A stretch of DNA of 32,488 bases from an uncultured Candidatus Bathyarchaeia archaeon (GCA_964634705.1 CAZWKG010000002.1:1-32488), one strand, 5' to 3'. Shown: positions 17,195-32,488, numbered from the stretch's first letter. Program-made: numbers and translations. Notes: generated by a model from the letters alone, not told the origin.

Positions 17195-18076
17195 ATGAGC
17201 GGAGGGCAATCCGCAAACTCTGAGTTGCATAGATCTCAAGAAGCTCCCTTAAGAAACCGGCATGAGGAGATGAAACTCCTCAAAACGAGGATGGAAAAGA
17301 TACGGCACAAGATTGCCGTCATCAGCGGGAAAGGAGGCGTCGGCAAGACCCTAGTCACCGTCAACCTGGCCGTGGCCCTGGCAATGAGTGGGCGAAACGG
17401 CAGGGTCGGCATCCTCGATGCGGACATACACGGCCCCTGCGTCCCGAAGATGCTGGGATTGAAGGGGAACCGATTGGAGGTGGGGCCACCCGGCGTGTTT
17501 CCGGCTTTTGGCCTCTTAAACATCAAGGTGGTATCCATGGACTTCCTTCTCCCCAGCGACGACTCCCCCGTCATCTGGAGAGGACCATTGAAGATGGGCG
17601 CCATAAGGCAGTTCCTCTCCGAGATCGTCTGGGGCGACCTGGAGTACCTCCTCATAGATCTGCCGCCTGGGACCGGGGACGAGGCGCTCAGCGTTCTCCA
17701 GCTGCTGCCGGAGATGGACGGCGTCGTCATAGTCACCATCCCCAGCGAGGTCTCCCAGAACGTCGTAAAGAAGGCTGTCACCTTCGCCCGGAAGATGGAG
17801 GTGCCCGTCATAGGCGTCGTCGAGAACATGAGCGGCCTCGTCTGTCCCTTCTGTGGGGAGAGGATCGACGTGTTCAGCAGCGGTGGAGGAGAGAAGATAG
17901 CCATGGAGATGGGGATCCCCCTCCTGGGAGCCATCCCCCTAGACCCCAGCATCTCTAGGGACTCGGACGCAGGCATACCTTTCATAGTAGAGCACCGGGA
18001 TTCATTGGCCGCCAGGGCATTCGACTCCATAGTCGAGGAGATAGAGAGATTCGTGGAGAAGAGGGGAAGGGAATGA
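17195..18076 (+). CDS. mrp: Mrp/NBP35/ApbC-family Fe-S cluster carrier ATPase
   Basis: 293 aa. It has the deviant Walker A ISGKGGVGKT, plus ILDADIHGP, DLPPGTGDE and the cluster-bridging CPFC motif. A TATA-like GTTTTTAAAC lies at 17138-17147 and AGGTG lies 6 nt upstream of the ATG. Confidence 0.9.
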   Translation: MSGGQSANSELHRSQEAPLRNRHEEMKLLKTRMEKIRHKIAVISGKGGVGKTLVTVNLAVALAMSGRNGRVGILDADIHGPCVPKMLGLKGNRLEVGPPGVFPAFGLLNIKVVSMDFLLPSDDSPVIWRGPLKMGAIRQFLSEIVWGDLEYLLIDLPPGTGDEALSVLQLLPEMDGVVIVTIPSEVSQNVVKKAVTFARKMEVPVIGVVENMSGLVCPFCGERIDVFSSGGGEKIAMEMGIPLLGAIPLDPSISRDSDAGIPFIVEHRDSLAARAFDSIVEEIERFVEKRGRE

Positions 18077-18480
18077 AGCTGGCTGTATCATCCACAGGAA
18101 GAGGCCTGGAAAGCGCTGTTGACCCGCGTTTCGGCAGGTGCTCCTACTTCGTCATTGTAGACACAGAGACGATGGAGTTCGAGGCGGTGCCCAACTTGAG
18201 CGTAGGGGCTGCCCACGGCGCGGGGATTCAGGCCGCCCAGCTGGTCGCCTCAAAGGGAGTGGAGGCCGTTCTGACGGGTAACTTGGGCCCCAACGCGTTC
18301 AGCGCTCTCTCAGCAGCGGGCGTACAGGTGGTGACGGGGGCTGGGGGCACAGTCAGAGACACCCTGGAGCGGTTTAAACGGGGCGAACTCAGAGCGAGCA
18401 GCGGTCCCACCGTGGGCGGCCACTTTGGCTCGGGAGGCCGAGGGACGGGCCGGCGAAGGGGTGGACGACGCCGTATCTGA
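18073..18480 (+). CDS. NifX/NifB-C-terminal-like (Nitro_FeMo-Co family) protein with a Gly/Arg-rich tail
   Basis: 135 aa. DPRFGRCSYFVIVDTETMEF..GAGIQAAQLVASKGVEAVLTGNLGPNAF is the COG1433 signature. The C-terminal tail is GGHFGSGGRGTGRRRGGRRRI. Its ATG overlaps the mrp TGA (ATGA). Confidence 0.8.
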   Translation: MKLAVSSTGRGLESAVDPRFGRCSYFVIVDTETMEFEAVPNLSVGAAHGAGIQAAQLVASKGVEAVLTGNLGPNAFSALSAAGVQVVTGAGGTVRDTLERFKRGELRASSGPTVGGHFGSGGRGTGRRRGGRRRI

Positions 18481-18528
18481 GGCTCCTTTATACGTCTCAT
18501 CCACAAATAAAATTATGAGGCGGAGAAG

Positions 18529-18891
18529 ATGGTCAGGATCGTGATCCCGGTCGCTGATGGGAGTGGGGAGCTGCTCTCAGACCACTTCGGAAGAGCTCCC
18601 TACTTCGCCTGGTACAAGCTTGAGGGCAGCGAGATCGTCGACAGAGGCCTTGTACCTAATGACAGCGAGCACTTCGGTGGAACGGGTCTTCCTCCGGATC
18701 GCATCTTGCAGCTTAGGCCTGATGCGGTCATCACAGTCGGCATGGGATGGAGGGCCCTCAGCAGGTTTCAGAACGCCGGCGTGGCAGTGCTGCAGTCGGT
18801 GGGAAGGCAGGCTGAGGAGAACCTCGACAGGTTCCTCAGGGGAGAGCTCGAGGAGCTGACCGAAGGCTGCCTCCACGCCCGCCACCGCTAG
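18529..18891 (+). CDS. NifX/NifB-C-terminal-like (Nitro_FeMo-Co family) protein, second paralog
   Basis: 120 aa. It has LSDHFGRAPYFAWYKLEG...PDAVITVGMGWRALSRFQNAGVAV and ends in a Cys/His-containing EGCLHARHR. Confidence 0.78.
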   Translation: MVRIVIPVADGSGELLSDHFGRAPYFAWYKLEGSEIVDRGLVPNDSEHFGGTGLPPDRILQLRPDAVITVGMGWRALSRFQNAGVAVLQSVGRQAEENLDRFLRGELEELTEGCLHARHR

Positions 18892-18910
18892 ACGGTGTAA
18901 GGGGTCGCAT

Positions 18911-19747
18911 TTGAAGATCGCGATAGCGAGCGGCAAAGGTGGGACCGGAAAGACCTCGGTCGCCGTCAACCTGGCCCTATCGCTTGAGGTTGCCCAGGTC
19001 CTCGACTGCGATGTGGAGGAGCCCAACGCCCACATCTTGTTGAAGCCCGAGGTCGATAGCGTCTCCCCAGTCGAGGTTTTAGTCCCCCGCATCTTCAAGG
19101 ACAAGTGCGACTACTGCGGCGAGTGCGCCCGCTTCTGCCAGTATCACGCCCTCTTCGTCGCCGGTGAGACCGCCCTCGTCTTCCCAGAGCTCTGCCACAG
19201 CTGCGGCGGCTGCAGCCTAGTCTGCCCTAGAGACGCCATCGTCGAGGAGCCGAGGAAGATCGGCATGGTGTTCAAGGGTTCGGCCTGCAATGTTGAACTC
19301 GTCTACGGCGAGCTGGAGGTGGGCGAGCCGATGGCTGTCCCTGTAATCTCGGCCGTCAAGAGGCGAATGAATGAAGAGGGGAGGGTCATCTTGGACGCGC
19401 CGCCGGGAACTGCCTGCCCCGTGGTCGAAACGGTCCACGGAAGCGACTTCTGCCTGCTAGTGACGGAACCGACGCCCTTCGGCCTCCACGACCTGAAGGT
19501 CACGGTGGAGGTCGTGAGGCAGCTTAGGGTCCCCCTCGGTGTGGTCGTCAACTTCAGCGGAATAGGCGACCACGGCGTCTACGACTTCTGCGACGAGCAG
19601 GGCATCCCAATCCTGATGGAGATACCCTTCGACCGCGGTATAGCTGAACTCTACTCTAGGGGTGTCCCCTTCGTCGAGGCGATGCCAGAGTGGAAGCAGC
19701 GGTTCAGGGAGCTTGCAGACCGAATACGGGAGGAGGCTGGCGCATGA
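18911..19747 (+). CDS. MinD/ParA-superfamily P-loop ATPase with inserted 2x[4Fe-4S] ferredoxin module (COG1149 type), paralog 1
   Basis: 278 aa with a TTG start. It has the Walker A SGKGGTGKTS and LDCDVEEPNAHILL. The insert carries CDYCGECARFC and CHSCGGCSLVCP (two CxxCxxCxxxC motifs). Confidence 0.85.
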   Translation: MKIAIASGKGGTGKTSVAVNLALSLEVAQVLDCDVEEPNAHILLKPEVDSVSPVEVLVPRIFKDKCDYCGECARFCQYHALFVAGETALVFPELCHSCGGCSLVCPRDAIVEEPRKIGMVFKGSACNVELVYGELEVGEPMAVPVISAVKRRMNEEGRVILDAPPGTACPVVETVHGSDFCLLVTEPTPFGLHDLKVTVEVVRQLRVPLGVVVNFSGIGDHGVYDFCDEQGIPILMEIPFDRGIAELYSRGVPFVEAMPEWKQRFRELADRIREEAGA

Positions 19748-20631
19748 AGCAGATCACGATCCTCAGCGGCAAGGGCGGGACGGGAAAGACGACGGTGACG
19801 GCGTCCTTCGCCGCCCTGTCTGAGAATACGGTCTTCGCCGACTGCGATGTCGACGCCTCCAACCTCCATCTGCTGCTGAAGCCCAAGGTGGAGGAGACCA
19901 TGGAGTTCAAAGGCCTCAAACTCGCCGTAATCAACTCCGACAGGTGCACAAGATGCGGACTATGCGAGGAGAAGTGCCGCTTCAACGCGATCAAAGAATT
20001 CAAAGTAGACCCTATCAAGTGCGAGGGATGCGGCGTCTGCGTACGTGTCTGCCCTGTTGATGCCATCGACTTCTTGGAGCGGGTCTGCGGCCACGCCTAC
20101 ATCTCCCAGACCCGATACGGCCCTATGAGCCACGCCCGGCTGAAGCCGGGGATGGAGAACTCGGGAAAGCTCGTCACCCTAGTGAGGCAGAACGCGAAGA
20201 AGCTGGCAGAGGATGGAGATCACGATCTGGTGATCGTCGATGGCCCGCCGGGCATCGGGTGTCCCGTCATCGCTTCCCTCTCCGAGATCGACATCGGCTT
20301 CGTGGTGGTGGAGCCCACCCTTTCCGGCATCCACGACCTCAAGCGGGCGCTGATGCTACTAGAACACTTCAAGGTCGAGCCCCTGGTCTGCATAAACAAG
20401 CACGACCTGAATGAGGAGAACACGGGCGACATCGAGGAATTCTGCGCCGAGGAGGGTATAGATGTCGTCGGCAAAATTCCCTTCGACCCTGAGGTCACTA
20501 GGGCGATTGTCGCGGGCCTTCCAGTGGTCGAGTATGAACCGGGGTCTCCCGCATCGAAGGCGATTAAAGAGACATGGACGCTATTAAAGCAGCGCCTCAG
20601 GTTAAACGCCCGAGGATTGGTTGATCGATGA
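19744..20631 (+). CDS. MinD/ParA-superfamily P-loop ATPase with inserted 2x[4Fe-4S] ferredoxin module (COG1149 type), paralog 2
   Basis: The ORF track starts at 19690. I prefer ATG 19744 (MKQITILSGKGGTGKTT), which overlaps the upstream TGA (ATGA). It has ADCDVDASNLHLLL, CTRCGLCEEKC and CEGCGVCVRVCP. Confidence 0.85.
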   Translation: MKQITILSGKGGTGKTTVTASFAALSENTVFADCDVDASNLHLLLKPKVEETMEFKGLKLAVINSDRCTRCGLCEEKCRFNAIKEFKVDPIKCEGCGVCVRVCPVDAIDFLERVCGHAYISQTRYGPMSHARLKPGMENSGKLVTLVRQNAKKLAEDGDHDLVIVDGPPGIGCPVIASLSEIDIGFVVVEPTLSGIHDLKRALMLLEHFKVEPLVCINKHDLNEENTGDIEEFCAEEGIDVVGKIPFDPEVTRAIVAGLPVVEYEPGSPASKAIKETWTLLKQRLRLNARGLVDR

Positions 20632-21377
20632 GCCCCCTATTTTGGATAATCGGGGCCACATTTATCATCAGTCTGATAGCCTGGATCGGATCTCTAACCC
20701 TATTTCTGAAAGAAGAACTGATGGATAACATCCTGCAGGTCCTCGTGGCTTTATCCGCCGGAGGGTTGATGGGCGGGGCCTTCTTCCACCTACTGCCTGA
20801 AGCCATCTCTGAGGTGGGTTCCGCTTCACCTGCCACCTTAAACCTGTTCTCATACCTCATCGTAGGCTTCTGCACCTTCTTCATCTTGGAACAGTTCATC
20901 GCATGGTACCATGAACATTCTGGCGTACATCGGAGGAAACCGGTCTCCTACCTGGTCCTGATCTCCGATCTGGTGCACAACTTCATCGACGGACTGGTGA
21001 TCGCTGGTTCCTTCATGATCGGCTTCAACGTGGGAGTAGCCACATCCCTCGCCATAGCCTTGCACGAGATCCCCCAGGAGATAGGAGACTTCGGGGTCCT
21101 GGTCTACGGTGGCTTTCAAAAGCTTAGGGCCCTAATCTGGAACTACGCGTCAGCGGTCACGGTAATCCTCGGAGGGGTAGCAGGATATTATCTCTCCACC
21201 CTTGTAGGGGGCGCCGCCGTTCTTCTGCTACCCTTTGCGGCGGGAAACTTCATCTATATAGCCGCCTCTGATCTGATACCTGAAATAAAGCATGGAGAAA
21301 AAATCGGGAGAAACCTGGTGCATTTCTTCACATTCATGACTGGGATACTGCTCATGCTTGGAATAAGAATACTATGA
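20628..21377 (+). CDS. ZIP-family divalent metal permease (ZupT-like)
   Basis: 249 aa and polytopic. It has the HNFIDGLVIAGSF and ALHEIPQEIGDFGVL signature helices. Its ATG overlaps the stop of ATPase paralog 2 (ATGA). Confidence 0.85.
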   Translation: MSPLFWIIGATFIISLIAWIGSLTLFLKEELMDNILQVLVALSAGGLMGGAFFHLLPEAISEVGSASPATLNLFSYLIVGFCTFFILEQFIAWYHEHSGVHRRKPVSYLVLISDLVHNFIDGLVIAGSFMIGFNVGVATSLAIALHEIPQEIGDFGVLVYGGFQKLRALIWNYASAVTVILGGVAGYYLSTLVGGAAVLLLPFAAGNFIYIAASDLIPEIKHGEKIGRNLVHFFTFMTGILLMLGIRIL

Positions 21378-21425
21378 TGGAAAAAACTGCTATCATGAAT
21401 AAAGGAACCCGGGGGCACCATTAAT

Positions 21426-22280
21426 ATGAAGTTGAATAGCAGAAGCCTATTCGTTCTGGCTTTCTTCCTTATCGCAATCATCGTCTTGGCCATCTACCTC
21501 ATCAAATTTATCTATAAGCCAGCTGAAGGCCCTTTTAATGAAGAGCATCTTAAGCTTGGGAAATGTGATGGAACTCTAACCATTCTCTACGACAACAACC
21601 CCTACGACCCGAAGCTGAGAACTGCTTGGGGCTTCTCCTGCCTCGTCTCCCTAGACGGCGCCACCATCCTCTTCGACACCGGCGGAGACGGGAGGCTCCT
21701 GGCCGAGAACATGGCTAAGCTGGGAGTCGACATAAGAAGCATACAGGCAGTCGTCCTCTCCCACATCCACGGCGACCACACCGGAGGCCTAGACGCCGTA
21801 CTGGAAAAAAATAACAACGTAACGGTCTTTCTCCCAGCCTCCTTCACTTCTAACTTTAAAGCCGATGTGAAGAGGCATGGAAGCGCGGTGGTGGAGGTGT
21901 ATGAGGCGGTCAAGGTCCATGATTGCGTTGCGACGACAGGCGTCCTAGGAAGAGCCATCGAGGAACAGTCTCTCATGGTGGAGACGAGCCGAGGGTTGGT
22001 GCTGGTCACCGGCTGCGCCCATCCGGGAATTGTGAACATCGTAAGAAGGGCGAAGGAACTCACCGGCGAAGAAATACACCTCGTCGTCGGAGGATTCCAC
22101 CTCGCCTCTAAATCAGAGGAGGAGATAAACCGGATCATCACCCAGATGAAGGAGTTGGGTGTTAGGAAGGTGGCTCCCTGCCACTGCAGCGGCGACCCGG
22201 CGAGGAGGCTATTCAAAGAAGCCTTCATAGCCAACTATATAGAAGCCGGAGTTGGCAAGGTAATACAGATCGTAGGCTGA
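21426..22280 (+). CDS. N-terminally membrane-anchored MBL-fold metallohydrolase (COG1237-like)
   Basis: 284 aa. It has one N-terminal TM helix (LFVLAFFLIAIIVLAIYLI) after K/R residues, the HxHxDH motif SHIHGDHTGG, and TGCAHPG. This family is often auto-annotated after the MJ0301 methanopterin enzyme. Confidence 0.78.
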   Translation: MKLNSRSLFVLAFFLIAIIVLAIYLIKFIYKPAEGPFNEEHLKLGKCDGTLTILYDNNPYDPKLRTAWGFSCLVSLDGATILFDTGGDGRLLAENMAKLGVDIRSIQAVVLSHIHGDHTGGLDAVLEKNNNVTVFLPASFTSNFKADVKRHGSAVVEVYEAVKVHDCVATTGVLGRAIEEQSLMVETSRGLVLVTGCAHPGIVNIVRRAKELTGEEIHLVVGGFHLASKSEEEINRIITQMKELGVRKVAPCHCSGDPARRLFKEAFIANYIEAGVGKVIQIVG

Positions 22281-22412
22281 GCATATGGATACTTCGAGTC
22301 ATTCTCTGAAGAGATGGTCTATGTTTCCTCTGCCCTACAAGAACTTTAAGGCGGTTCTTTGCTACCTAGGTTTGAGGTGCCTCATGGGAGGTGAAGACAG
22401 ATAACCACGGTA

Positions 22413-23183
22413 GTGAAAGAAGTGATAGACCTTCTCATCCAAAACGTTCCCGACATGGAGGACATCCTAATCGATAGGGTGTGTTTAGGGTTGGGATACA
22501 CAGGCGTTAAGCTGGAAGGAGGGCAGATGGGGGTGTGCCACAGCCTCCTCTCCGAGATGGCGCCGGGATGCTGCGAGATAATCGATCAGGCAGGGACGCT
22601 TGCCGGTAGACCTGCTCCAGAACTCCTTAGCCTGGCTGGTTCTTGGGACCTTGGGGAACGTGTGATCGGAGTGGCCACGATGAACGCGCTCTCACAGATC
22701 GTCTTCGAAACTCACCCTGATAGATACGCCTGTGAGGAGAGGAACCTCATCGACGTTCTCGAAGTAGGTCACGAGGAAGTTGTGGCTTTAGTTGGGCTCA
22801 TCAAACCTTTCATCCCCATTTTAAGGTCCAAGGCAAAGCAGTTGTATGTTTTAGAGCGTGGGTTCCGACGCGAAAAGGGGATACTTCCGGATACCGCCTG
22901 CGAGGAGGTGATCCCAGAGGCGGATGTGGTGGTCATCACGGGGAGCTCCCTCGCTAACGGGACCGTAGATCGCCTCTTAGTGCTCGCAGAGAACGCGAGA
23001 AGGGTGGCCTTGGTTGGCCCAACCGTCAGCTGCATCCCTGACCCACTATTCAAAAAGGGAGTCAGCTTCGTCGGAGGAGTCCGAATTTTTGATCCAGATA
23101 GAGCTATGCAGATCATAGGGGAGGGTGGTGGCACGCCTCAACTTAGACAAGCCGCCAAGTTTGTAACTTACAGGGCTAAATAA
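22413..23183 (+). CDS. DUF4213/DUF364 protein (putative heavy-metal chelation, enolase-N-like plus Rossmann-like domains)
   Basis: 256 aa with a GTG start. It has VCLGLGYTGVKLEGGQMGVCHS in the N-terminal domain and ADVVVITGSSLANGT...GGGTP in the C-terminal domain, as I recall for these Pfam families. Confidence 0.72.
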   Translation: MKEVIDLLIQNVPDMEDILIDRVCLGLGYTGVKLEGGQMGVCHSLLSEMAPGCCEIIDQAGTLAGRPAPELLSLAGSWDLGERVIGVATMNALSQIVFETHPDRYACEERNLIDVLEVGHEEVVALVGLIKPFIPILRSKAKQLYVLERGFRREKGILPDTACEEVIPEADVVVITGSSLANGTVDRLLVLAENARRVALVGPTVSCIPDPLFKKGVSFVGGVRIFDPDRAMQIIGEGGGTPQLRQAAKFVTYRAK

Positions 23184-23310
23184 GATGGATACTTTGCGAC
23201 ACCCATAACTGGAAGTTGATCCATTATGGTGTATTCGAGACCCATCTCTTCGTAAAAAGATCGAAGTATCGGATAGCTTTACTTGAGTATAATACTGTGT
23301 GACACCGGGA
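23169..23310 (-). pseudogene. possible relic of a GNAT acetyltransferase C-terminus
   Basis: Own minus-strand translation in two frames: ..HTVLYSSKAIRY.. then ..RSFYEEMGLEYTIMDQLPV..*. Together they resemble the GNAT motif-B tail (L.V...N..AI.FYEK.GFE). A frameshift and an in-frame TAA interrupt it. The support is weak, and it overlaps the DUF364 3' end by 15 nt. Confidence 0.3.
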
Positions 23311-23372
23311 TATAAACTATGACGATGGACTTTGCCCCGCTTCACCATCGGACCTTTGCGAGCAGATAACGA

Positions 23373-23747
23373 TTAAAGCATTTTCTCGTCTAACTGTCTC
23401 TTCACTTTCTCGACTTTATCCTCCATCCTCCGGGGCTCGTCTCTTCTGTCATCGATCTTAATATCGGTCACAACCCTCTTCGCTCCAGCCCGGAAAACAG
23501 CTTCATGGGCTTTCAAGATCACCTCAACAGCCTCCTCTAGCGTATCAGCCTCCAGAACCGTCGCCATAGGTGTCAGCTGGTACCTCAGACCCGACCTCTC
23601 GACTTCCTTCAAGGCCTCGGACACGAATCTAGAGACGCTCACTCCCTCCCCAAGCGGAGAAGTTGAGAACTGGACTATCACCTTCAAATCCTTGCGAGAA
23701 CTCTTACCTTTCATTTTGATCATGTATGGATTTAAACGCAGGGGCAA
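23373..23747 (-). CDS. MTH1187/YkoF-family (thiamine-binding-like) protein
   Basis: KVIVQFSTSPLGEGVSVSRFVSEALKEVERSGLRYQLTPMATVLEADTLEEAVEVILKAHEAVF matches the MTH1187 fold family. The real start is probably an internal Met (MKGKSS.., about 23714). Confidence 0.72.
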   Translation of the reverse strand: MPLRLNPYMIKMKGKSSRKDLKVIVQFSTSPLGEGVSVSRFVSEALKEVERSGLRYQLTPMATVLEADTLEEAVEVILKAHEAVFRAGAKRVVTDIKIDDRRDEPRRMEDKVEKVKRQLDEKML

Positions 23748-23774
23748 GATAACATTACTGTGTCCGCATTTGCG

Positions 23775-24464
23775 TTAGGTGGGAGCTATTTGTGTTTTAA
23801 GGTGCTTTTTGGCCTTGATGAGGATTACTCCGACGCCCCGCCTGATTGGGACAAGCTGGTATTCCTCCTCAGGCTCATCGGGAGAGGCAGTTAGCGTGCC
23901 CACCGACTCCACAGGATCGAAGCCTGCTTTCTTCAGTAAGGAGGAAACCTCGCTAAGCGTGTATAGCTTTGCTCTGCTAAAGATTTGGTTTCCTTTTTCT
24001 GCGAGTTTGGAATAGTGCTCTCCCCATGAGCTATCCCGGTTGATTAGCAGAATCACTAGAGTCGCATCTTCCCTGAGGATTTTGTTTACTGAGTATAGCG
24101 ACTTTAACGGTTCTGGCATGAACTCCAATACTGTGACCATGTAGGCAAAGTCTAGGCTTCCACGTCTTATAGGTGAGGCTTCAGCCATCGCTATGATCGA
24201 CGGTAAATTCCTCTTTTTCGCTTCTTTGAGCATGCCTTGGGAGGGGTCTAAGCAGACTACACTTCTCTCATCCGTTGATAGATATTTGGCGAAGATGCCC
24301 GTGCCAGATCCTATATCGATACCTAACCCTGAATGGGGTAACAGGGCCTCTAGCCCAACGAGTTCTGAACGGAAAGCGTAGACACCGACGGGCTTACCGT
24401 ACCATTCATCATAGGATGCCGCTGCATTTTCGAAGATTTCTATGATTTCACGCGTACTTTTCAT
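23775..24464 (-). CDS. class I SAM-dependent methyltransferase
   Basis: 229 aa. It has motif I GLGIDIGSGTGIFAKYL and a post-I acidic residue (VCLDPS). It is a Methyltransf_11-like protein. Confidence 0.8.
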   Translation of the reverse strand: MKSTREIIEIFENAAASYDEWYGKPVGVYAFRSELVGLEALLPHSGLGIDIGSGTGIFAKYLSTDERSVVCLDPSQGMLKEAKKRNLPSIIAMAEASPIRRGSLDFAYMVTVLEFMPEPLKSLYSVNKILREDATLVILLINRDSSWGEHYSKLAEKGNQIFSRAKLYTLSEVSSLLKKAGFDPVESVGTLTASPDEPEEEYQLVPIRRGVGVILIKAKKHLKTQIAPT

Positions 24465-24528
24465 ATGCTCTATCCCCTATCTAATCTATCTTCTCCACAG
24501 TTATTATAAGCAAATTTTAGTGTGATAG

Positions 24529-25224
24529 CTAATGTTGTATTGCGTATTCTAGAGCCTTCTCCGCGTGAAGGGTTGCTGTATCGAAGAGTTTCACCGAGGT
24601 GTGCTCCGGAGTCACTAGTAGCGGTATTTCAGTGCAGCCCAGTACCATGCCCTGCGCCCCTCTTCGCATCAACCCCTCTATGATTTCGAGAAACCTGTGT
24701 CTTGATTCGGGGCGGAGTATGCCCCTTGAAAGCTCTTCGAAGACGACCTTGTTTATGTAATCCCTGTCCACCTTTTCTGGTACTATGACTTTGATCCCAT
24801 GCCTCTCCAGCCCCTCTCTGTAGAAGGGCTTCTCCATGGTGAATCTCGTTCCCAGCAGGCCTACCGTATTCACGCCCTCCCTTTCAATGGCTTCGGCGGT
24901 CGTTTCGATAATACTGATTAGAGGGATGGGCGACTGTTCCCGTAGCTCATCGAAGACGATGTGCATGGTGTTCGTGGCGATGATGGCGAAGTCCGCCCCT
25001 GCAGCGCTGAGGCTTTCCAGGCAGCTGAGAAGCGCCTCCTCTACGCTTCCCCAATCTTCACCGTCCATCCAGTCCTCGAATTTCTGGAAACTCACGCTGT
25101 AGATGATTATCTCCGGGTAGCTGTGGTTCCCGAACAGCTCTTGATACCTCCTGACGATGTGTTGATAGTAGGTGACCGTGGATTCCGGGGTTAAGCCTCC
25201 AAGGATACCGATTTTCTTATGCAC
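24529..25224 (-). CDS. Asp/Glu/hydantoin racemase-family protein (Thr/Cys variant)
   Basis: 231 aa with a GTG start. It has KKIGILGGLTPEST, IIATNTMH (Thr84 where aspartate racemases have the first catalytic Cys) and LGCTEIPLL (Cys197). Confidence 0.82.
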   Translation of the reverse strand: MHKKIGILGGLTPESTVTYYQHIVRRYQELFGNHSYPEIIIYSVSFQKFEDWMDGEDWGSVEEALLSCLESLSAAGADFAIIATNTMHIVFDELREQSPIPLISIIETTAEAIEREGVNTVGLLGTRFTMEKPFYREGLERHGIKVIVPEKVDRDYINKVVFEELSRGILRPESRHRFLEIIEGLMRRGAQGMVLGCTEIPLLVTPEHTSVKLFDTATLHAEKALEYAIQH

Positions 25225-25305
25225 CGTATGTTCGCCTCATATAAATCGACGTGATCGGAGATTAGATTGCACTCTTGTTCAATAATAATTTTGTGCATAT
25301 GCAAC

Positions 25306-25317
25306 TTTTATATAAAG
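25306..25317 (+). promoter_or_regulatory. TATA-box candidate for the SQR-like gene
   Basis: TTTTATATAAAG lies 20-30 nt upstream of GTG 25337 / ATG 25343. This is the geometry of a leaderless archaeal transcript. Confidence 0.45.
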
Positions 25318-25336
25318 TATACCCGACCATTACTCG

Positions 25337-26542
25337 GTGAGAATGAACGCGAAGAAGATTTTGATATTGGGAGCAGGCGCTGCAGGCTCCATCGTTGCTA
25401 ACAAGATAGCCAGGGAGCTTCGGAGGGATATAGCCGAGGGGAAGCTGGAGGTTACGGTGCTGGACAAGGACGACCTGAATACGAACCAGGGTGGGTTCAC
25501 CTTCATCCCCTTCGGCCTCTACGCCCCTGAAGACATAACGAGGCCGAGGAGCAAGCTCATCAGCCCCAGGGTCAAGAACGCGTTCGGTGCAGACGGCGAG
25601 GTGAGCCACGTAGACCTCGGGGATCGGGAGGTGACAACCAAAAGCGGGAGGAACTACTCTTACGATTACCTCCTCATCTCCACTGGTTGTAGACTCGAGC
25701 CGGAGGCAGTCTCAGGCCTATCTGGAGACCTAAACACTTTCTATACGCTGGAGGGAGCCATGAAGCTTAGAGAGGCCATTAAGACATTCAACGAAGGGCG
25801 TATCGTCGTACTGACACCGGAGATGCCCATCGCCTGTCCAGGAGCTCCAAGCAAGTTCACCATCCTCCTCGACGACTACCTTAGGCATGTGAGAGGCGAG
25901 GATGTCCGGGAGGATGTGGAAATCTCCTTCCTCTGGCCTATAGGCAACATTGGCCCAGCCGTGTACAACGAGAAGATAGTGGAAGGCTTCGCCGAGAGGG
26001 AAATCGAGTACAGGAAGGAGTTCAAGGTTCAGGAGGTGGACTCCGACGAGAAGGAGGTCGTCTCAGACGACGGAGACAGGGTCGGATACGATCTCCTGGT
26101 CTCGATACCCCCTCACAGGGGGATAAAGGCCCTTCAGGAGTCTGGTATCACGGACGAGAACGGGTGGGTGCCCACGGACATCCATACGCTGCAGTACTCC
26201 AAGTCGCCGTCTGAGCGCTACGACGAGGTCTACGCCGTGGGAGACGCTGGCTCGGCCAAGATCAACAAGATGGGCATCACAGCCCACTTCCAGGCGCTGA
26301 CGACGGGCCAGAATCTGATAAACGACTATCTCGGAAACGGGGTCAGGGTGATATACAACGGGGAGCAGGGGTGCCCCATCGTGGAATCCTCGTACACCCC
26401 TGCTACGGATGGGAGGGCGTACATGGTGACCTGGACCTACGGGAATCCGCCAGCCCCCTTCAACTCGACCAAGCTGGGCTGGCTCATCTACAGGATGTAC
26501 TACTACATCTACTGGGATACCACGATGAAGGCCATCATGTAG
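25337..26542 (+). CDS. FAD-dependent pyridine nucleotide-disulfide oxidoreductase, sulfide:quinone oxidoreductase-like
   Basis: 401 aa. It has KILILGAGAAGSIVANKIA (FAD Rossmann motif), IACPGAPSKF, YAVGDAG and EQGCPIVES. The Cys positions resemble SQR redox cysteines. The start may be ATG 25343. Confidence 0.72.
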   Translation: MRMNAKKILILGAGAAGSIVANKIARELRRDIAEGKLEVTVLDKDDLNTNQGGFTFIPFGLYAPEDITRPRSKLISPRVKNAFGADGEVSHVDLGDREVTTKSGRNYSYDYLLISTGCRLEPEAVSGLSGDLNTFYTLEGAMKLREAIKTFNEGRIVVLTPEMPIACPGAPSKFTILLDDYLRHVRGEDVREDVEISFLWPIGNIGPAVYNEKIVEGFAEREIEYRKEFKVQEVDSDEKEVVSDDGDRVGYDLLVSIPPHRGIKALQESGITDENGWVPTDIHTLQYSKSPSERYDEVYAVGDAGSAKINKMGITAHFQALTTGQNLINDYLGNGVRVIYNGEQGCPIVESSYTPATDGRAYMVTWTYGNPPAPFNSTKLGWLIYRMYYYIYWDTTMKAIM

Positions 26543-26926
26543 GTGAAGGAGATGTCGAAAATGGAAGCTAATAGGAGTAACCCCGAGGCGACGACAATAA
26601 ACTTGGAGCCCCAGACCGTGGAGTCGCTGGTGGACCTCGTAGACTCCGTCGAGTTCCTGAGGAGCTTCTTCAACGACCAGGTGGTCCGCGACGTTTCGTG
26701 TATCGGGTCGTCCGTGCTGAAGCTGGTCAACGCCGTCTCCAACACGGATCTGGTCGACATCTTGGAGAGAGGCCTCCAGGACCCCCAGCTGGACAGGGCC
26801 CTCATCGATCCCCCGAAGATAGGCTTCTGGGGGCTCCTATCCGCTCTAAGGAACGAAGACATGCGGAAGGGGATGGGCATCGTCATCGAACTCTTAAAAG
26901 CCATTGGCAGAGCATCCGGCCAATAA
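26543..26926 (+). CDS. DUF1641 protein
   Basis: 127 aa. ..LVDLVDSVEFLRSFFNDQVVRDV..KLVNAVSNTDLVDILERGLQDP..GFWGLLSALRNEDMRKGMGIVIELLKAIG is typical DUF1641, a family usually found next to such flavoproteins. The start may be ATG 26552, preceded by AGGTGA. Confidence 0.7.
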   Translation: MKEMSKMEANRSNPEATTINLEPQTVESLVDLVDSVEFLRSFFNDQVVRDVSCIGSSVLKLVNAVSNTDLVDILERGLQDPQLDRALIDPPKIGFWGLLSALRNEDMRKGMGIVIELLKAIGRASGQ

Positions 26927-27160
26927 CAAGATCATCATGGATCTCAAAAAACTCGAATATCCCCTTTTTCACCGGTTCCCATAGATAGTCCGCGCACAAA
27001 ACGTATGGCGGCCCTTATGGTTTGGAATGTGAAGGCATTCGGCCAGTCACAGAGTCTGGGAGATAGCATATGGTTAGATCCTTCGCCAAAAGGTTTTAGC
27101 GCGTCGTCTTTATCTTGGTTTTCGAGAGGTTGACATGAACTGGACATCGAATTAATCAAA

Positions 27161-27889
27161 GTGGGGTTTACGGCTAGTCTCATCGCCGGTCTTGCCACCG
27201 GCGCTGGAGCCTTACCTGTCTTGTTTTTCGCTCGGATCTCAGATAGGATCCTCGACGTGATGCTCGGCTTCGCCGCGGGCGTCATGCTCGCTGCCTCCTC
27301 CTTCAGCCTCCTGGTCCCCGCCATTGAACTGGGTGGGGTTTGGGCTGCCATCGTAAGCCTCGGAATCGGTGGTTTGGCTCTCCATCTGATTGACCGTTTT
27401 ATCCCGCACAGGCATCTTATTTCAGGCTCCGAAGGGCCGTCATCAAGATTGGCACGCATATGGCTTTTCGTCACAGCCATAACCATCCACAATTTTCCTG
27501 AGGGCGTGGCTGTAGGGGTGAGCTTCGGCGGCGGGAACATCGCAAGAGGCCTCATTGTAGCTACGGCAATCGGGCTGCAGAACATGCCGGAGGGCCTGGC
27601 GGTCGCCTTTCCCTTGCTACGAGAGGGTTATAGTCGGAGCAGGGCCTTGTGGTACGCGACGCTCACGGGCTTAGTAGAACCTATAGGTGGTTTCCTTGGA
27701 ATCACTTTGGTCTCACTGTCCCGATCTATTCTGCCTTGGGGCCTTGCTTTCGCAGCCGGTGCCATGATATTTGTTGTGAGCGATGAGATGATTCCAGAGA
27801 GTCATAGAAAGGGATTTGAACGCGAAGCTACGTTCGGTTTGATGATCGGCTTCATAATTATGATGCTCCTAGATAATTTAATTGCTTAA
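27161..27889 (+). CDS. ZIP-family divalent metal permease (GufA/ZupT-like), second copy
   Basis: 242 aa with a GTG start. It has ITIHNFPEGVAVGVSF and GLQNMPEGLAVAFPL. Confidence 0.85.
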   Translation: MGFTASLIAGLATGAGALPVLFFARISDRILDVMLGFAAGVMLAASSFSLLVPAIELGGVWAAIVSLGIGGLALHLIDRFIPHRHLISGSEGPSSRLARIWLFVTAITIHNFPEGVAVGVSFGGGNIARGLIVATAIGLQNMPEGLAVAFPLLREGYSRSRALWYATLTGLVEPIGGFLGITLVSLSRSILPWGLAFAAGAMIFVVSDEMIPESHRKGFEREATFGLMIGFIIMMLLDNLIA

Positions 27890-27955
27890 CGGGATAAATA
27901 TCATAATGTTCTATGTAAAGGTGAAACATATCCGGTACGTAGTGAAATAAGGAAT

Positions 27956-27979
27956 TCTTTTGTTGCTGTTTATTTTTAC
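27956..27979 (+). terminator. T-rich terminator candidate after the second ZIP gene
   Basis: TTCTTTTGTTGCTGTTTATTTTTA lies about 65 nt after the stop codon in an AT-rich spacer. Confidence 0.35.
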
Positions 27980-28149
27980 AAAAAATGTGAACAGATCTAT
28001 TAGAGACTCTTTAGCAGATGAGCTGATATGTACACTCGTGGCTAAACCAGTTCTCGCCGACTTTTCATCACCACACGCATTTGATTTTTAGAATATCTAA
28101 GATAGATGAGGCGGATGGCTTGAAAGCGACATGTAATTCGATCTTTTGG

Positions 28150-28160
28150 AAATTTTTATT
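28150..28160 (+). promoter_or_regulatory. TATA-box candidate for the CGGC-cdhA-hydrogenase unit
   Basis: AAATTTTTATT lies 30-40 nt upstream of ATG 28190. The predicted TSS is near 28180-28185, giving a near-leaderless transcript. Confidence 0.45.
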
Positions 28161-28174
28161 AGTCTAGACTAATA
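28157..28174. promoter_or_regulatory. 18-bp perfect palindrome TATTAGTCTAGACTAATA (candidate operator)
   Basis: I verified base by base that the sequence is self-complementary. Its left arm overlaps the TATA candidate, and the whole element lies between TATA and the predicted TSS. Confidence 0.55.
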
Positions 28175-28189
28175 TTATCTTTGATTCGA

Positions 28190-28681
28190 ATGGTCAAAGT
28201 AGGCATAATGATATGCGACCGTAACAGGACGTGTACCGGCAACAAGTGCTTCATGTCCGTAGGTGAAAGAGATGGAGCCTTTGCCCAATATCCTAAGGAT
28301 GAGCCTATAGAAGTTGTTGGCTTCATAGCGTGTGGTGGCTGCCCCGGCGAAAGGCTGGAATTTAGCCCAGCGGACATGAAGAAGTACGGCGCCGAGGTGA
28401 TCCATCTAGCGACGTGCTTCTTGGCTGGGTATCCTGCATGCCCCTACATCGGGGACTTTATCCAGTACATCGAGAAGGTTGTGGGACTACCTGTAGTGAT
28501 TGGCACCCACCCAATGCCCCAGAACTACATCGACGCCCATGAAAAAGCAGGGGATTGGGAGAGGGACGATGTCCGGAAATATCTAAAGGGCCTTGTTGAG
28601 GACAGGGAAGCCTCTCAGAAATACGACTCGACTAGGCTCGACTTCCTGAGAAAAGTTCCGAGCCTAGGTTACGCAGATTAG
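28190..28681 (+). CDS. CGGC-domain cysteine-rich protein
   Basis: The ORF track starts at TTG 28181; I prefer ATG 28190 (MVKVGIMICDRNRTCTGNKCF). It has the central IACGGCPGERL motif and a later LATCFLAGYPACPY. Confidence 0.72.
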   Translation: MVKVGIMICDRNRTCTGNKCFMSVGERDGAFAQYPKDEPIEVVGFIACGGCPGERLEFSPADMKKYGAEVIHLATCFLAGYPACPYIGDFIQYIEKVVGLPVVIGTHPMPQNYIDAHEKAGDWERDDVRKYLKGLVEDREASQKYDSTRLDFLRKVPSLGYAD

Positions 28682-28687
28682 GTTGGT

Positions 28688-31036
28688 GTGAGGTTGTCTA
28701 AAAGGGATCTTAAGCTTAAGATTGATGAAGTCTCATCAGCCCTGGGCACATTCAAAGGGCTGCAGATCGAGATAGGGAGGATATACGAAGAGGAATGGGA
28801 GGAGCCACTAGGTCAAACTCCATTCCCCAGCGTTGGCACTTTTCGTGAATGGGACAGAAAACTACTTGAACGGTACAAGCCCTTCTACATGCCATTCTGC
28901 GACCTCTGCTGTCTCTGCACATTTGGGAAATGCGATCTGACAGGAGACAAACGAGGGGCCTGCGGCATTACCATGGCGGGCCAGCAGTCGAGAATCGTGC
29001 TCCTTGCCTGCTGTATAGGTGCCAGCACCCACACAGCCCACGCGAGGCACATGCTCAACCACCTAATCGAGGAGTACGGAAGGGACGCCCCGCTGGAGGT
29101 AGCCATCAACACAAACGTTGAAGCCCCTCACATACGTCTCGTATGCGGTATTCGACCGAAGACGTTGAGGGATCTAGAGGATGTGCTGGATTATGTTGAG
29201 ACCCAGCTGGTGCAGCTCGTTGCCGCCGCCCACACCGGCCAGGAGGGAGATAATATCGACTTCGAGTCCAAGGCGTTCCACGCAGGCATGCTCGACCATG
29301 TAGCCATGGAGGTAGCTGATATTGAGCAGATAGCGACGCTTGGTATGCCTAAGGGCGTTGCGGACACGCCGATGACCGATATAGGCTTCGGTTCCATAGA
29401 TACCAGCAAGGCCGTTATTATGTGCATAGGACACAACGTTCTCCCGAGTGTCGACATTATCGACTACCTAATGGAACACGACCTCTTCGGCGAAGTCGAG
29501 GTTGGAGGGCTTTGCTGCACAGCCCACGATAACAGCCGTTACAACAAGCGGGCGAAGATAATCGGCCCCATATCCTGGCAACTTAGATTCATCCGTTCAG
29601 GTATCCCAGATCTGGTCGTCGTCGACGAGCAGTGTCTTAGAACAGACATTCTCGAAGAGGCGAAGAAAATTGGAGCTCCTGTCATCGCAACAAGCGAGAA
29701 GAGCATGCTAGGCCTCCCGAATAGGACCAAAGATGACCCTGACAGCATCGTAGACGACCTCGTGGCAAGTAAGGTTCCAGGCGTTCTTATAATAAACCCA
29801 AGGAAGGTAGGAGAGGTCGCAGTTAAAACCGTGATGAAAGTCCATCATAATAGGAAGGGCTTCACACCCTTAACCTTTGAAACAATCTCGGAGCTCGCTA
29901 AGAATTGCAGGAGCTGCATGGAATGCGTCCGAGCCTGCCCCAATAACCTTCCAGTCATGAATGCCGTAAAGGCTGCAGAGACCGGTGATTTTGAGCTGCT
30001 TGGCGCCCTCTACCCGCTTTGCGTGGGGTGCGGCCGCTGCGAGAGCGCCTGCCCCGTTGGATTTCCTCTCATCTCCTTCTTCAATAAAGGCGCAGAAGAG
30101 CGCATACATGACGAGAAGTTTTCCATTAGAGTGGGCCGCGGCGCGGTCACAGATATTGAGATCAGAGAGGTTGGAAGAGCGATAGTGTTTGGCGAGATCC
30201 CTGGCATCGTAGCGCTTGTTGGGTGCGCCAATTATCCAGCCGGGGGTTCTGATGTGGCTAAAATAGCTGAGGAGTTCCTTAAGCGTCGATTCATCGTGGT
30301 AGCTACAGGTTGCGCGGCCATGGACATTGCCATGATCAGAGACGAGGAGGGACTCAACCTCTACGAGAAGTATCCTGGAAACTTCGACGCAGGCGGATTA
30401 TTAAATATAGGAAGCTGCGTCTCGAACGCCCACATTACGGGCGCCGCCGTAAAGATCGCCAACATCTTCGCCAAGCGGCCGCTGAGGGCGAACTACGAGG
30501 AGATCGCAGACTACATCTACAACCGCGTGGGCGCCGTCGGCGTCGCCTGGGGCGCCATGTCCCAGAAGGCGGCCAGCATCGCGGCTGGCTGCTGGAGGCT
30601 CGGCATCCCAGTCGTCGTCGGCCCCCACGGAGCCAAGTACCGCAGGATGCTCCTCGGCAGGAAGGAGAAAGAGGAGGACTGGATGGTCTACGACGCGAGG
30701 TCGGGCGAGAAGGTGTACATTGGACCTGCGCCTGAGCACCTTTTCTACGCGGCTGAGACGGTAGAGGAAGCTATGGTCACTATCGCCAAGCTATCCATGC
30801 GTCCCAACGATACGAGTAAGGGGCGGGCCATCAAGCTGAGCCACTATATCGACCTCTGCCAGCGGTACTACGGGAGCCTGCCCGAGGACCTTCACCTCTA
30901 CGTGCGCAGGGATGCCGACATACCCTTCATTATGAAGGATGAGATCATGAAGGCCCTTGAGAAGATGGGATGGGCGGATGGGAAGATAGCTTCGCCAGAT
31001 CCCACCATGCTTGATAGGCTCGTCAGGAGGCGCTGA
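28688..31036 (+). CDS. cdhA: Ni-dependent CO dehydrogenase, CdhA type (ACDS alpha-subunit-like, with inserted 2x[4Fe-4S] domain)
   Basis: 782 aa with a GTG start. The N-terminal B/D-cluster motif is FCDLCCLCTFGKCDLTGDKRGACGI. C-cluster ligand contexts are all present: CIGHNV (His), GGLCCTAHD, VDEQCL, VGCANYP, ATGCAA and IGSCVSNAH. The ferredoxin insert has CRSCMECVRACP and CVGCGRCESACP. Confidence 0.9.
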   Translation: MRLSKRDLKLKIDEVSSALGTFKGLQIEIGRIYEEEWEEPLGQTPFPSVGTFREWDRKLLERYKPFYMPFCDLCCLCTFGKCDLTGDKRGACGITMAGQQSRIVLLACCIGASTHTAHARHMLNHLIEEYGRDAPLEVAINTNVEAPHIRLVCGIRPKTLRDLEDVLDYVETQLVQLVAAAHTGQEGDNIDFESKAFHAGMLDHVAMEVADIEQIATLGMPKGVADTPMTDIGFGSIDTSKAVIMCIGHNVLPSVDIIDYLMEHDLFGEVEVGGLCCTAHDNSRYNKRAKIIGPISWQLRFIRSGIPDLVVVDEQCLRTDILEEAKKIGAPVIATSEKSMLGLPNRTKDDPDSIVDDLVASKVPGVLIINPRKVGEVAVKTVMKVHHNRKGFTPLTFETISELAKNCRSCMECVRACPNNLPVMNAVKAAETGDFELLGALYPLCVGCGRCESACPVGFPLISFFNKGAEERIHDEKFSIRVGRGAVTDIEIREVGRAIVFGEIPGIVALVGCANYPAGGSDVAKIAEEFLKRRFIVVATGCAAMDIAMIRDEEGLNLYEKYPGNFDAGGLLNIGSCVSNAHITGAAVKIANIFAKRPLRANYEEIADYIYNRVGAVGVAWGAMSQKAASIAAGCWRLGIPVVVGPHGAKYRRMLLGRKEKEEDWMVYDARSGEKVYIGPAPEHLFYAAETVEEAMVTIAKLSMRPNDTSKGRAIKLSHYIDLCQRYYGSLPEDLHLYVRRDADIPFIMKDEIMKALEKMGWADGKIASPDPTMLDRLVRRR

Positions 31037-31052
31037 TATCGGTGATAAATAG

Positions 31053-32252
31053 ATGAGTGAGAGAGAGTTCGTTATCCCGGTCGGACCGCAGCACCCGGCT
31101 CTGAAAGAGCCGGAAAACTTCACCTTCAAGGTCGAGGGCGAGTATGTCGTTGATGTAGAGCCTAGGATAGGCTACAACCACCGCGGCATAGAGAAGGCTA
31201 TGGAGAGCAGGACATATCTGCAGAACCTCTACCTCGTCGAGAGGATCTGCGGCATCTGCTCGAATTCCCATCAGACCTGCTACACGCAGAACGTGGAGGA
31301 GGTCCTGGGCATGGAGATACCTGAGCGCGCCAAGTTCATCCGGGTCCTCGTCGCCGAGCTGGAGCGCATCCACAGCCATCTCCTCTGGCTGGGCGTAGCT
31401 GCCCACGAGATCGGCTTCGACACCCTGTTCTACTACATCTGGCGGGATCGGGAGGTGGTCATGGACATGCTGGAGATGATCAGCGGCAACCGGGTCAACT
31501 ACGCCATCCCCACTATAGGCGGCGTCAGGAGGGACATCCCGTCGGACAAGATGCCTAATTACCAGAAGATGCTCGACATGCTGGAGGACCGAACACGGTT
31601 CTACAAGAACGTTGTCGCCAACGAGAAGACAGTCCTCAACAGGGTGGCTGGCGTAGGCGTCCTGTCCAAGGCGGACGCGATAAGGCTCAGCGCGGTGGGG
31701 CCGAACCTCAGGTGCTGCGGAGTCGCAAGCGACATCAGGCGCGATCATCCATACCTGGTCTATGACGAGATACCTTTCAACGTGATTTCGTACGAGGGTG
31801 GAGACCAGCTGGCTCAGATCCTAGTCAGGGTTGACGAGACCCTTGAGAGCATCAAGATCTGCAGATATTGCCTCAAACACCTGCCAGATGGCCCCATAAG
31901 GGTGAAGTTCCCGCCGATGGGTAAAGTCCCGGATGGTGAGGCCGTTAGCCTAGTCGAAGCTCCGAGGGGGGAACTCATTCACTACATCCAGTCAAGGGGC
32001 GCGGACAAGCCTTACAGGTACAAGATACGGTCCCCGACCCTGGGTAATATCTTATCACTGTGCGAGAGACTCAAGGGCGGGTACATTGCCGACATTCCCA
32101 TAGTCCTCGCTGGCATCGACCCCTGCTTCAGCTGTACAGACAGGATGACGTTCGTCGATGAGGAGAAAAACAAGCGATGGAACATAACAGGTGAGCATTT
32201 AAGGAAATACGGAATAGAATGGTACCAAGAGAATATTTTAGCATTAAAATGA
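31053..32252 (+). CDS. [NiFe] hydrogenase large subunit, group 4 (Mbh/Ech/Coo/Hyc-like, NuoD-related)
   Basis: 399 aa. It has GPQHPALKEP, the N-terminal Ni-ligand motif RICGICSNSH and the C-terminal motif DPCFSCTDR, followed by a 35-aa extension. GGTGA lies 8 nt upstream of the ATG, which sits 16 nt after the cdhA stop. Confidence 0.9.
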   Translation: MSEREFVIPVGPQHPALKEPENFTFKVEGEYVVDVEPRIGYNHRGIEKAMESRTYLQNLYLVERICGICSNSHQTCYTQNVEEVLGMEIPERAKFIRVLVAELERIHSHLLWLGVAAHEIGFDTLFYYIWRDREVVMDMLEMISGNRVNYAIPTIGGVRRDIPSDKMPNYQKMLDMLEDRTRFYKNVVANEKTVLNRVAGVGVLSKADAIRLSAVGPNLRCCGVASDIRRDHPYLVYDEIPFNVISYEGGDQLAQILVRVDETLESIKICRYCLKHLPDGPIRVKFPPMGKVPDGEAVSLVEAPRGELIHYIQSRGADKPYRYKIRSPTLGNILSLCERLKGGYIADIPIVLAGIDPCFSCTDRMTFVDEEKNKRWNITGEHLRKYGIEWYQENILALK

Positions 32253-32302
32253 AAGCGCGCGTGCTCTAATTGAAAGATTGATTTACCATGAGTTGTTGAA
32301 AG

Positions 32303-32488
32303 ATGAAGGCTTACGGACCGGTGCCGTCCAGGCGGCTGGGGCAAAGCTTGGGGATAAATCATATTCCTCCAAAGGTATGTTCCTATTCCTGTGTCTACTG
32401 CCAACTGGGAAGAACCATTAAGATGCAATCAGATCGAGGCGAGTTCTATTCCCCTGAGGATATTGTCAAAGATGTGGCAGAGCAGGTC
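32303..32488 (+). CDS. radical SAM protein (N-terminal 62 codons; continues beyond window end)
   Basis: Not in the ORF track because it has no stop. Own translation: MKAYGPVPSRRLGQSLGINHIPPKVCSYSCVYCQLGRTIKMQSDRGEFYSPEDIVKDVAEQV. It contains the CxxxCxxC radical SAM cluster motif (CSYSCVYC). Confidence 0.8.
   Translation, partial: MKAYGPVPSRRLGQSLGINHIPPKVCSYSCVYCQLGRTIKMQSDRGEFYSPEDIVKDVAEQV

Follow-up and report, generated by a model that had tools for sequence, protein, structure and literature searches.

An operon in Bathyarchaeia that joins cdhA to the gene for an Hfo-type [NiFe] hydrogenase large subunit

A 32,488-nucleotide stretch of DNA from an uncultured Candidatus Bathyarchaeia archaeon (GCA_964634705.1, CAZWKG010000002.1:1-32488; the whole stretch is called the window below) carries at its end, at 28181-32488 on the plus strand, an operon for four proteins: a CGGC-domain protein, the catalytic subunit CdhA of a nickel carbon monoxide dehydrogenase (CODH), a group-4 [NiFe] hydrogenase large subunit (LSU) and a radical SAM protein. 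By sequence, CdhA belongs to the alpha-subunit family of acetyl-CoA decarbonylase/synthase (ACDS) and the LSU to the large-subunit family of the Hfo (4g) hydrogenase; by gene context, neither does. The linkage of cdhA to the LSU gene has outlasted much rearrangement. The best explanation, still a tentative one to which slightly less than an even chance is given, is that the operon co-expresses two intact catalytic subunits which need partners encoded elsewhere, and that it thereby links H2 and CO/CO2 redox chemistry.

The operon and the region in front of it comprise the following features; L numbers denote related loci.

27890-28189, plus strand: AT-rich intergenic region, putative archaeal promoter (GC 0.343, against 0.543 in the module)
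28181-28681, plus strand: CGGC-domain protein, 166 aa from a TTG start, probably 163 aa from ATG 28190 (PF08821, 98 bits)
28688-31036, plus strand: CdhA, clade A Ni-CODH catalytic subunit, 782 aa (TIGR00314), with a Fer4 insert and no cdhB after it
31037-31052, plus strand: cdhA-LSU junction, 16 nt, with a GGTGA Shine-Dalgarno-like motif; compared with the junctions of L001, L003, L033, L038 and L042
31053-32252, plus strand: group-4 (Hfo/4g-type) [NiFe] large subunit, 399 aa (PF00346 and PF00374), detached from other Hfo genes
32303-32488, plus strand: N-terminus of the radical SAM protein, 62 aa, running off the window end, with a CX3CX2C motif at CSYSCVYC

The four genes are almost certainly co-transcribed, to judge from their layout. 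As the first-pass annotation had described, they share a strand, are separated by gaps of only 6, 16 and 50 nt and lie behind an AT-rich region (34% GC, against 54%). With its TATA-like TTTTTATT at 28153, about 37 nt 5' of ATG 28190, this region is a putative promoter. Shine-Dalgarno-like motifs are present in the operon, and no terminator-like site was found when its plus strand was scanned; a scan for sigma-70 promoters and intrinsic terminators, a model not applicable to archaea, returned background levels. The same 16-nt gap between cdhA and the LSU gene is found in L121, an ENA contig whose DNA is 98.7% identical to window 21052-32488 and which runs 5.6 kb further. In six related loci the two genes are separated by a spacer of about 120-135 nt (L001 377-517; L003 9857-10000; L033 12344-12486), which has been deleted in the window and L121. 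The relatives' spacer holds an open frame of about 40 codons with some amino-acid conservation. It was also considered as a structured RNA and rejected, the consensus fold being weak (-7.8 kcal/mol).

The downstream sequence of L121 shows where the operon ends. The radical SAM gene is followed there by genes for a major facilitator superfamily (MFS) transporter (-), a cytidylyltransferase (-), two Nitro_FeMo-Co proteins (-), a DUF5320 protein (-) and a DUF134 protein (+). Radical SAM is therefore the last gene of the operon, which is complete with its four genes, and the earlier suggestion that it might be the 5' end of a larger novel cluster falls away. These 5.6 kb contain neither a small-subunit or membrane module nor cdhB-E; a standard Mbh or Ech module immediately downstream, which had been named as a simpler account of the locus, was looked for and is not there. 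The operon of L001 (accession JREQ01), whose LSU is 97% identical to that of the window, ends likewise; beyond it are an ORP-like set of genes and NikR. Contigs nearly identical to the window come from ENA ERZ23498930 (ZHAO22-1, SAMN13740702) and NCBI GCA_000753555.1. Pfam scans of 38 open reading frames of the window (every long non-overlapped one included) and tblastn panels found no cdhB, cdhC, cdhD, cdhE, CooF, NuoB, NuoC, NuoH, NuoI or antiporter gene across its 32.5 kb. This upholds the observation, made from the sequence at the outset, that the module lacks epsilon, CooF, small-subunit and membrane genes.

CdhA matches the cdhA equivalog TIGR00314 over its full length with 1171 bits (cut-off 781) and the CooS model TIGR01702 with 75 bits only (cut-off 478), which identifies it as a Cdh-type CODH. 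Its closest match in the PDB is 8riu_A (962 bits), and residues 404-458 form the Fer4 dicluster insert, the E/F-cluster ferredoxin. In a comparison by alignment column, made without mapping onto a structure, CdhB-less CdhA retains every Cys/His column (29/29) found to be near-invariant among 58 canonical CdhA proteins. Ligands for the B, C and D clusters together with the E/F ferredoxin insert reportedly correspond to structural group A-1 of Inoue et al. 2019. The canonical operon has the form MTHFR(-)|cdhA-B-C-D-E-cooC-cooC, MTHFR being methylenetetrahydrofolate reductase, and was found in L035, in L039 and at 56 other loci. With the alpha subunits encoded in such cdhABCDE operons of Bathyarchaeia, CdhA shares 78-87% identity. 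In neighbour-joining trees, which were computed throughout without support values, CdhB-less CdhA is not cleanly split from canonical L039/L041. It was considered as a divergent paralogue and this was rejected: it has neither a signature column nor a lost ligand, and its rate relative to outgroups is unchanged. In sequence, CdhA is indistinguishable from a standard ACDS subunit.

Hfo is an Fpo-like, 11-subunit, membrane-bound group 4g hydrogenase of Bathyarchaeia (Loh, Herve and Brune 2021, PMC7886697). The LSU of the window carries both NiFe-binding motifs, L1 as RICGICSNSH and L2 as DPCFSCTDR (defined as C[GS][ILV]C[AGNS]xxH and [DE][PL]Cx[AGST]Cx[DE][RL], as quoted in PMC7886697). A 35-aa C-terminal extension follows DPCFSCTDR, as in canonical HfoD; hycI is present in canonical Hfo loci and is not found at the window locus. 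HfoD of the canonical operons L002/L005 and L116 shares 82% identity with the LSU, which nests among canonical HfoD in the tree; the 4g label of the LSU is borrowed from Loh et al., who applied it to the canonical complex. An exact look-up of the LSU gave no record; its closest match in the PDB is MbhL (6cfw_L). The nearest relatives belong to operons of NuoA-B-C-D-H-I, HycI and NuoJ-K-L-M-N-like/antiporter genes (L002/L005, L116/L117). Among 28 LSU relatives from GTDB representatives, 27 could be judged, and all of these are accompanied by NuoB/C/H/I and antiporter genes, the exception being a lone copy split between L031 and L032.

Every lone LSU copy keeps 92 of the 98 columns that are near-invariant in operon-embedded HfoD. 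Identity to the outgroup L007 is 67-69%, the same as for operon-embedded HfoD, so that there is no acceleration of rate. The lone LSUs from three lineages group together as a monophyletic set. C222/Q252 was tried as a signature of lone LSUs and rejected; it is common to P0007, which lies in a canonical Hfo operon, and therefore marks a lineage and not the lone state. In sequence, the LSU cannot be told from a standard Hfo subunit. A [NiFe] large subunit requires a small subunit with the proximal cluster, Hyp proteins and, if it is C-terminally extended, a specific protease; we know of no large subunit that functions without a proximal-cluster small subunit. The C-terminal extension, the HfoD-like columns and the HfoD-like rate suggest that the usual partners are encoded elsewhere. 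The close kinship of both enzymes to standard ACDS and Hfo subunits (78-87% identity) is invisible from the window alone.

Conservation of the adjacency was followed in a metagenome scan anchored on CdhA, which gave 80 loci, with contig look-ups added; the counts of lineages rest on metagenome contigs. All close homologues of the operon proteins are from Bathyarchaeia. cdhA adjoins a group-4 LSU gene in five lineages: the window with L121 and L001; L003, L004, L033 and L036; L042 and L118; L038; and L076. The arrangement, which had been singled out from the window alone, is thus not specific to it and goes beyond chance. In L076 the order is swapped, with a frameshifted LSU gene upstream of cdhA; this LSU (10-962) lies in two reading frames, split near nt 340-390, and is either a pseudogene or the product of a sequencing error. 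The adjacency occurs in 0/58 canonical cdhABCDE loci and 0/28 LSU loci from GTDB species representatives. Synonymous divergence among adjacency loci is 0.6-1.4, and the flanking genes differ in every lineage. The dN/dS ratio is 0.05-0.10 for the CGGC gene, 0.03-0.08 for cdhA and 0.05-0.14 for the LSU gene; such strong purifying selection indicates that all three are functional. The seven cysteines of the CGGC protein are invariant in eight orthologues adjoining CdhB-less cdhA.

In four related lineages the CdhB-less cdhA, with or without the CGGC gene, has no LSU gene beside it. The place of the LSU gene is taken by an MFS gene in L034, by a gene for a CoA-disulfide-reductase-like flavoprotein with a rhodanese domain in L037 and by a NifU-like gene in L045; in L044, cdhA has neither a CGGC gene nor an LSU gene adjoining it. 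The conserved core is therefore CdhB-less cdhA, usually with the CGGC gene; the LSU gene is frequent, not universal.

Several known systems share parts of this arrangement. To our knowledge, the only CODHs described as coupled to a hydrogenase are of the CooS type and belong with a complete energy-converting hydrogenase (ECH) or Mbh cluster. In these CODH-ECH systems (coo of Rhodospirillum and Carboxydothermus; codh-mch-mnh of Thermococcus onnurineus), as in the window, a Ni-CODH and a group-4 catalytic subunit lie in one transcription unit, which implies coupling of CO/CO2 to H+/H2. In contrast to them, the window CODH is Cdh-type (clade A) and not CooS, it is accompanied by neither CooF nor CooC, and the hydrogenase is represented by its large subunit only, the small, NuoC, NuoH, NuoI and antiporter subunits being outside the locus. 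The module may thus resemble CODH-ECH only in the broadest sense, with its hydrogenase probably split across loci. In a survey of Ni-CODH contexts, clade F CODHs account for most of the associations with hydrogenases, and no secure one is reported for clade A (PMC13056359). A Cdh-type CODH adjoining a hydrogenase subunit is unreported in that survey and in a second survey of Ni-CODH genomic contexts (PMC6344411), and literature searches, papers on Bathyarchaeia included, found no published description of an operon of cdhA and a hydrogenase subunit.

The ACDS operon cdhABCDE encodes the same alpha subunit, with its cluster ligands and E/F insert. Unlike it, the window cdhA is not followed by cdhB, cdhC, cdhD, cdhE or cooC and is not preceded by MTHFR; a CGGC gene stands before it and a hydrogenase subunit gene after it. 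Hfo has an LSU with the same NiFe motifs and C-terminal extension, whereas the window gene stands apart from hfoA, B, C, H, I, J-N and hycI, sharing an operon with cdhA instead. Methanosarcina acetivorans CdhA3 is likewise encoded without neighbouring cdhB-E. It differs in being a single gene, with a suggested role as a sensor according to the summary within PMC4652020, while the window cdhA is part of a conserved operon with CGGC, LSU and radical SAM genes.

Bathyarchaeia are among the most abundant archaeal groups of sediments, and we know of no pure-culture biochemistry of their CODH or Hfo enzymes. The conserved operon of cdhA and hfoD offers a testable handle on the link of H2 to the carbonyl branch of the Wood-Ljungdahl pathway, or on the oxidation of CO to H2. 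The operon is, in addition, an unusually plain example of multi-subunit metalloenzymes whose catalytic subunits are encoded apart from their complexes, and it makes the CGGC protein and the radical SAM enzyme candidates for partnership with, or maturation of, the CODH.

According to the preferred explanation, nickel-containing subunits would be co-expressed for two enzymes that stand at the two ends of an electron path between H2, ferredoxin and CO2/CO. The LSU would assemble with the other Hfo subunits, a NuoB-type small subunit included, all supplied in trans; the Hyp maturation proteins and the HycI-type protease that act on it would come from outside the locus. Conversion of CO/CO2 by CdhA would be tied to H2 turnover by Hfo through ferredoxin or through the E/F clusters of CdhA. 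Electrons could flow in either direction: CO could drive the evolution of H2, as in coo, or H2 could drive the reduction of CO2 for the carbonyl branch. The cdhA and hfoD genes of the window would be either relocated sole copies or second copies (isoforms). Loh et al. have proposed that in Bathyarchaeia the coupling of H2 to ferredoxin by Hfo serves the Wood-Ljungdahl pathway (PMC7886697), and this proposal may supply the physiological logic.

A number of points weigh against this explanation. It requires hfoABCHI and the further hfo genes, hycI, hyp and cdhBCDE from elsewhere in the genome; the sequence examined is that of the locus. That the genes are co-transcribed, and that CdhA and Hfo are linked physically or by electron transfer, are predictions only. 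No role is assigned to the CGGC and radical SAM proteins. Lastly, sister lineages hold other genes at the same position (a flavoprotein gene in L037, an MFS gene in L034, a NifU-like gene in L045, mvhA in L042, L118 and L076, and mvhG in L003 and L033), which means that the LSU is not an obligatory partner of CdhA.

Pieces of other hydrogenases are found in the related loci. In L003/L004 and L033/L036, the radical SAM gene is followed by a gene for a small subunit of 323-330 aa with cysteines for three clusters; no such MvhG-like gene follows radical SAM in the lineage of the window (L121). An MvhA-type group-3 large subunit gene stands directly after the group-4 LSU gene in L042 and L118, and after cdhA in L076:

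L042 10774-12228, L118 4536-5846 and L076 3501-3853: MvhA-type large subunit (VhuA model, 420 bits, below cut-off)

L042 and L118 thus have two different hydrogenase large subunits in a row; none of the three loci holds a small subunit. The detached MvhG and MvhA are 77-81% identical to those of HdrA-MvhD-HdrC-HdrB-MvhG-MvhA-HycI-HycI operons (L119, L120), which adjoin the Hfo operon in related genomes. The small subunit of L003/L033 was considered as a special partner of the group-4 LSU and rejected; the contexts of its homologues show it to be the ordinary MvhG of Hdr-Mvh operons (79-81% identity). In this sublineage, genes of three nickel or hydrogenase complexes are detached from their operons and gathered around cdhA.

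Two further observations concern these loci. Adjoining the Hdr-Mvh and Hfo operons of L119, at 8893-10707, is a degenerate extra set consisting of a fragment of NuoB (75 aa), NuoC and a NuoD-like protein of 318 aa; the last shares 43% identity with the window LSU and is without the NiFe cysteines. L118 has IS110-family transposase genes at 7320-7912, about 3 kb from its module of cdhA, LSU gene and mvhA, which fits frequent rearrangement.

The lone group-4 LSU gene mentioned above, with neither cdhA nor Nuo-like genes, is at L031 10001-10560 and L032 1-668. The two contigs overlap by 55 nt and come from one GTDB metagenome-assembled genome, binchicken_co274_450. The gene is flanked by HypB, HypA, ZIP, RACo-like, group-3 large subunit and Mrp ATPase genes, then by OsmC-like, ZIP, CDF and Nitro_FeMo-Co genes. 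A canonical Hfo operon (L012) is present in the same assembled genome as well, so that a lone copy and a canonical one can occur together.

Metal-related genes, among others, lie upstream of the operon:

17195-23183, plus strand: ORP-like metallocluster genes with ZIP, metallo-beta-lactamase and DUF364 genes, outside the operon (domain scans)
17195-20631, also 20628-21377 and 22413-23183: the ORP-like set (an Mrp/NBP35 ATPase resembling MrpORP, two proteins of the Nitro_FeMo-Co type and two MinD ATPases that carry ferredoxin inserts), then ZIP, metallo-beta-lactamase and DUF364 genes
25337-27889: type III sulfide:quinone oxidoreductase (SQR)-like flavoprotein (290 bits, below cut-off), DUF1641 protein and second ZIP transporter, directly upstream of the operon; conserved in L121

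The region 17195-20631 has the same set of domains as the ORP clusters (Desulfovibrio orp, MrpORP). It differs in that the match to MrpORP is below the NCBIfam cut-off (342 bits against 450), and linkage to a CODH is not described for ORP clusters. MrpORP is an Fe-S cluster carrier in Desulfovibrio which transfers clusters to apo-proteins (PMC6345978). Six other loci with CdhB-less cdhA (L001, L034, L042, L044, L118 and L121) have ORP-type and DUF364 genes nearby, as against 0/58 canonical loci.

This neighbourhood speaks for an explanation by nickel or metallocentre logistics, in which the genes would be co-regulated by metal supply, or their products jointly matured, while CdhA and the LSU serve in separate, ordinary complexes. 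The 11 kb upstream of the operon hold an ORP-like cluster, DUF364 and two ZIP transporters; the confinement of the ORP-type set to CdhB-less loci, the presence of NikR in L001, the placement of the cdhA-less LSU of L031 and L032 among HypA, HypB, ZIP, CDF and Nitro_FeMo-Co genes, and the ability of MrpORP to pass on Fe-S clusters point the same way. The explanation is nevertheless unlikely. The function of the ORP-type genes is itself unsettled, canonical cdh operons are served by CooC and not by such genes, and the tight 16-nt coupling of cdhA to the LSU gene, kept while the metal genes move, suggests a more specific link. A reading without any functional meaning, in which the hfo, mvh and cdh operons of this sublineage came apart and cdhA and hfoD were brought together by one rearrangement, is more doubtful again. 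It is favoured by the gene order around the module, which differs in every lineage, by mvhG and mvhA being apart and yet 77-81% identical to the adjacent pairs of L119/L120, by the transposase of L118 and the degenerate NuoB/C/D set of L119; given the monophyly of the lone LSUs from three lineages, one origin is enough. However, the adjacency outlives a synonymous divergence of about 1 or more amid reshuffled surroundings, L076 has kept the neighbourhood although the order is inverted, and deletion of the spacer has made the operon tighter in the window and L121.

The first-pass annotation had put forward, as one of two possibilities, a minimal enzyme in which the ferredoxin insert of CdhA or the CGGC protein forms the electron path. 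Such a self-contained, soluble CODH-hydrogenase, in which electrons would pass from CdhA to the LSU via the E/F clusters or CGGC, or in L003/L033 via the Mvh-type small subunit whose gene lies two genes downstream, is improbable. It would account for the lack of NuoB/C/H/I within 28 kb upstream and 5.6 kb downstream, for the company that the CGGC protein, with its invariant cysteines, usually keeps with CdhB-less CdhA, and for the intact three-cluster MvhG-like gene after radical SAM in L003, L004, L033 and L036. Against this stand the lack of any established large subunit that acts without a small subunit and the LSU itself, which retains its C-terminal extension and is unchanged and unrelaxed at the positions conserved in HfoD of the membrane complex (92/98, at the HfoD rate). 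The MvhG-like protein is moreover an ordinary MvhG (79-81%) that is absent from the lineage of the window, and in L042 and L118 the LSU gene is followed by mvhA, not by a small subunit gene. A still less probable form of the idea is a soluble hybrid in which a Cdh-type CODH, with CGGC replacing epsilon, would be docked on the group-4 LSU and a three-cluster small subunit of the group 3 Mvh type; in a variant, CdhA, HfoD and MvhA would form a cassette of catalytic subunits, to be exchanged into the standard complexes in the presence of CO. If true, the hybrid would be a cross-group [NiFe] hydrogenase producing H2 from CO without a membrane module. It is most improbable of all that the pair regulates the standard complexes, with CdhB-less CdhA as a CO sensor and the lone LSU as a gas-binding partner. 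A role as CO sensor has been suggested for the lone CdhA3 of M. acetivorans (Matschiavelli et al. 2012, in the summary found in PMC4652020); here, in contrast, the catalytic residues are fully retained, purifying selection is at the level of catalytic orthologues, and Pfam scans found no DNA-binding or signalling domain in the operon.

The remaining two proteins of the operon have few recognisable relatives. The CGGC protein has no relative in a PDB sequence search, and its AlphaFold2 single-sequence model is unusable (pLDDT 37). The radical SAM protein is 318 aa long in L121; PF04055 is weak on the 62-aa fragment of the window and clear on full-length orthologues, and no specific NCBIfam family or PDB relative was found for it. 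The following regions were compared:

window 32303-32488, L001 1768-2718 and L121 11251-12207: radical SAM genes

The first 62 residues of the window protein are 95% identical to L001, while the full-length proteins of L121 and L001 are only 78% identical and their LSU 97%; this suggests that the radical SAM gene is mosaic or recombined.

A few minor features lie further from the operon. L001 has a second, paralogous copy of the ORP-like set (62-76% identity) downstream of its module. Just upstream of the MrpORP-like gene of the window, at 16728-16913 on the minus strand, there is a short tblastn match to DUF364 (42% identity), which may be a remnant. At 13001-16000 the GC content falls to 0.37-0.46, against 0.55-0.65 in the flanks; this dip surrounds a GHMP-kinase-like gene (13455-14144, minus strand) and a family-2 glycosyltransferase gene (14599-15468).

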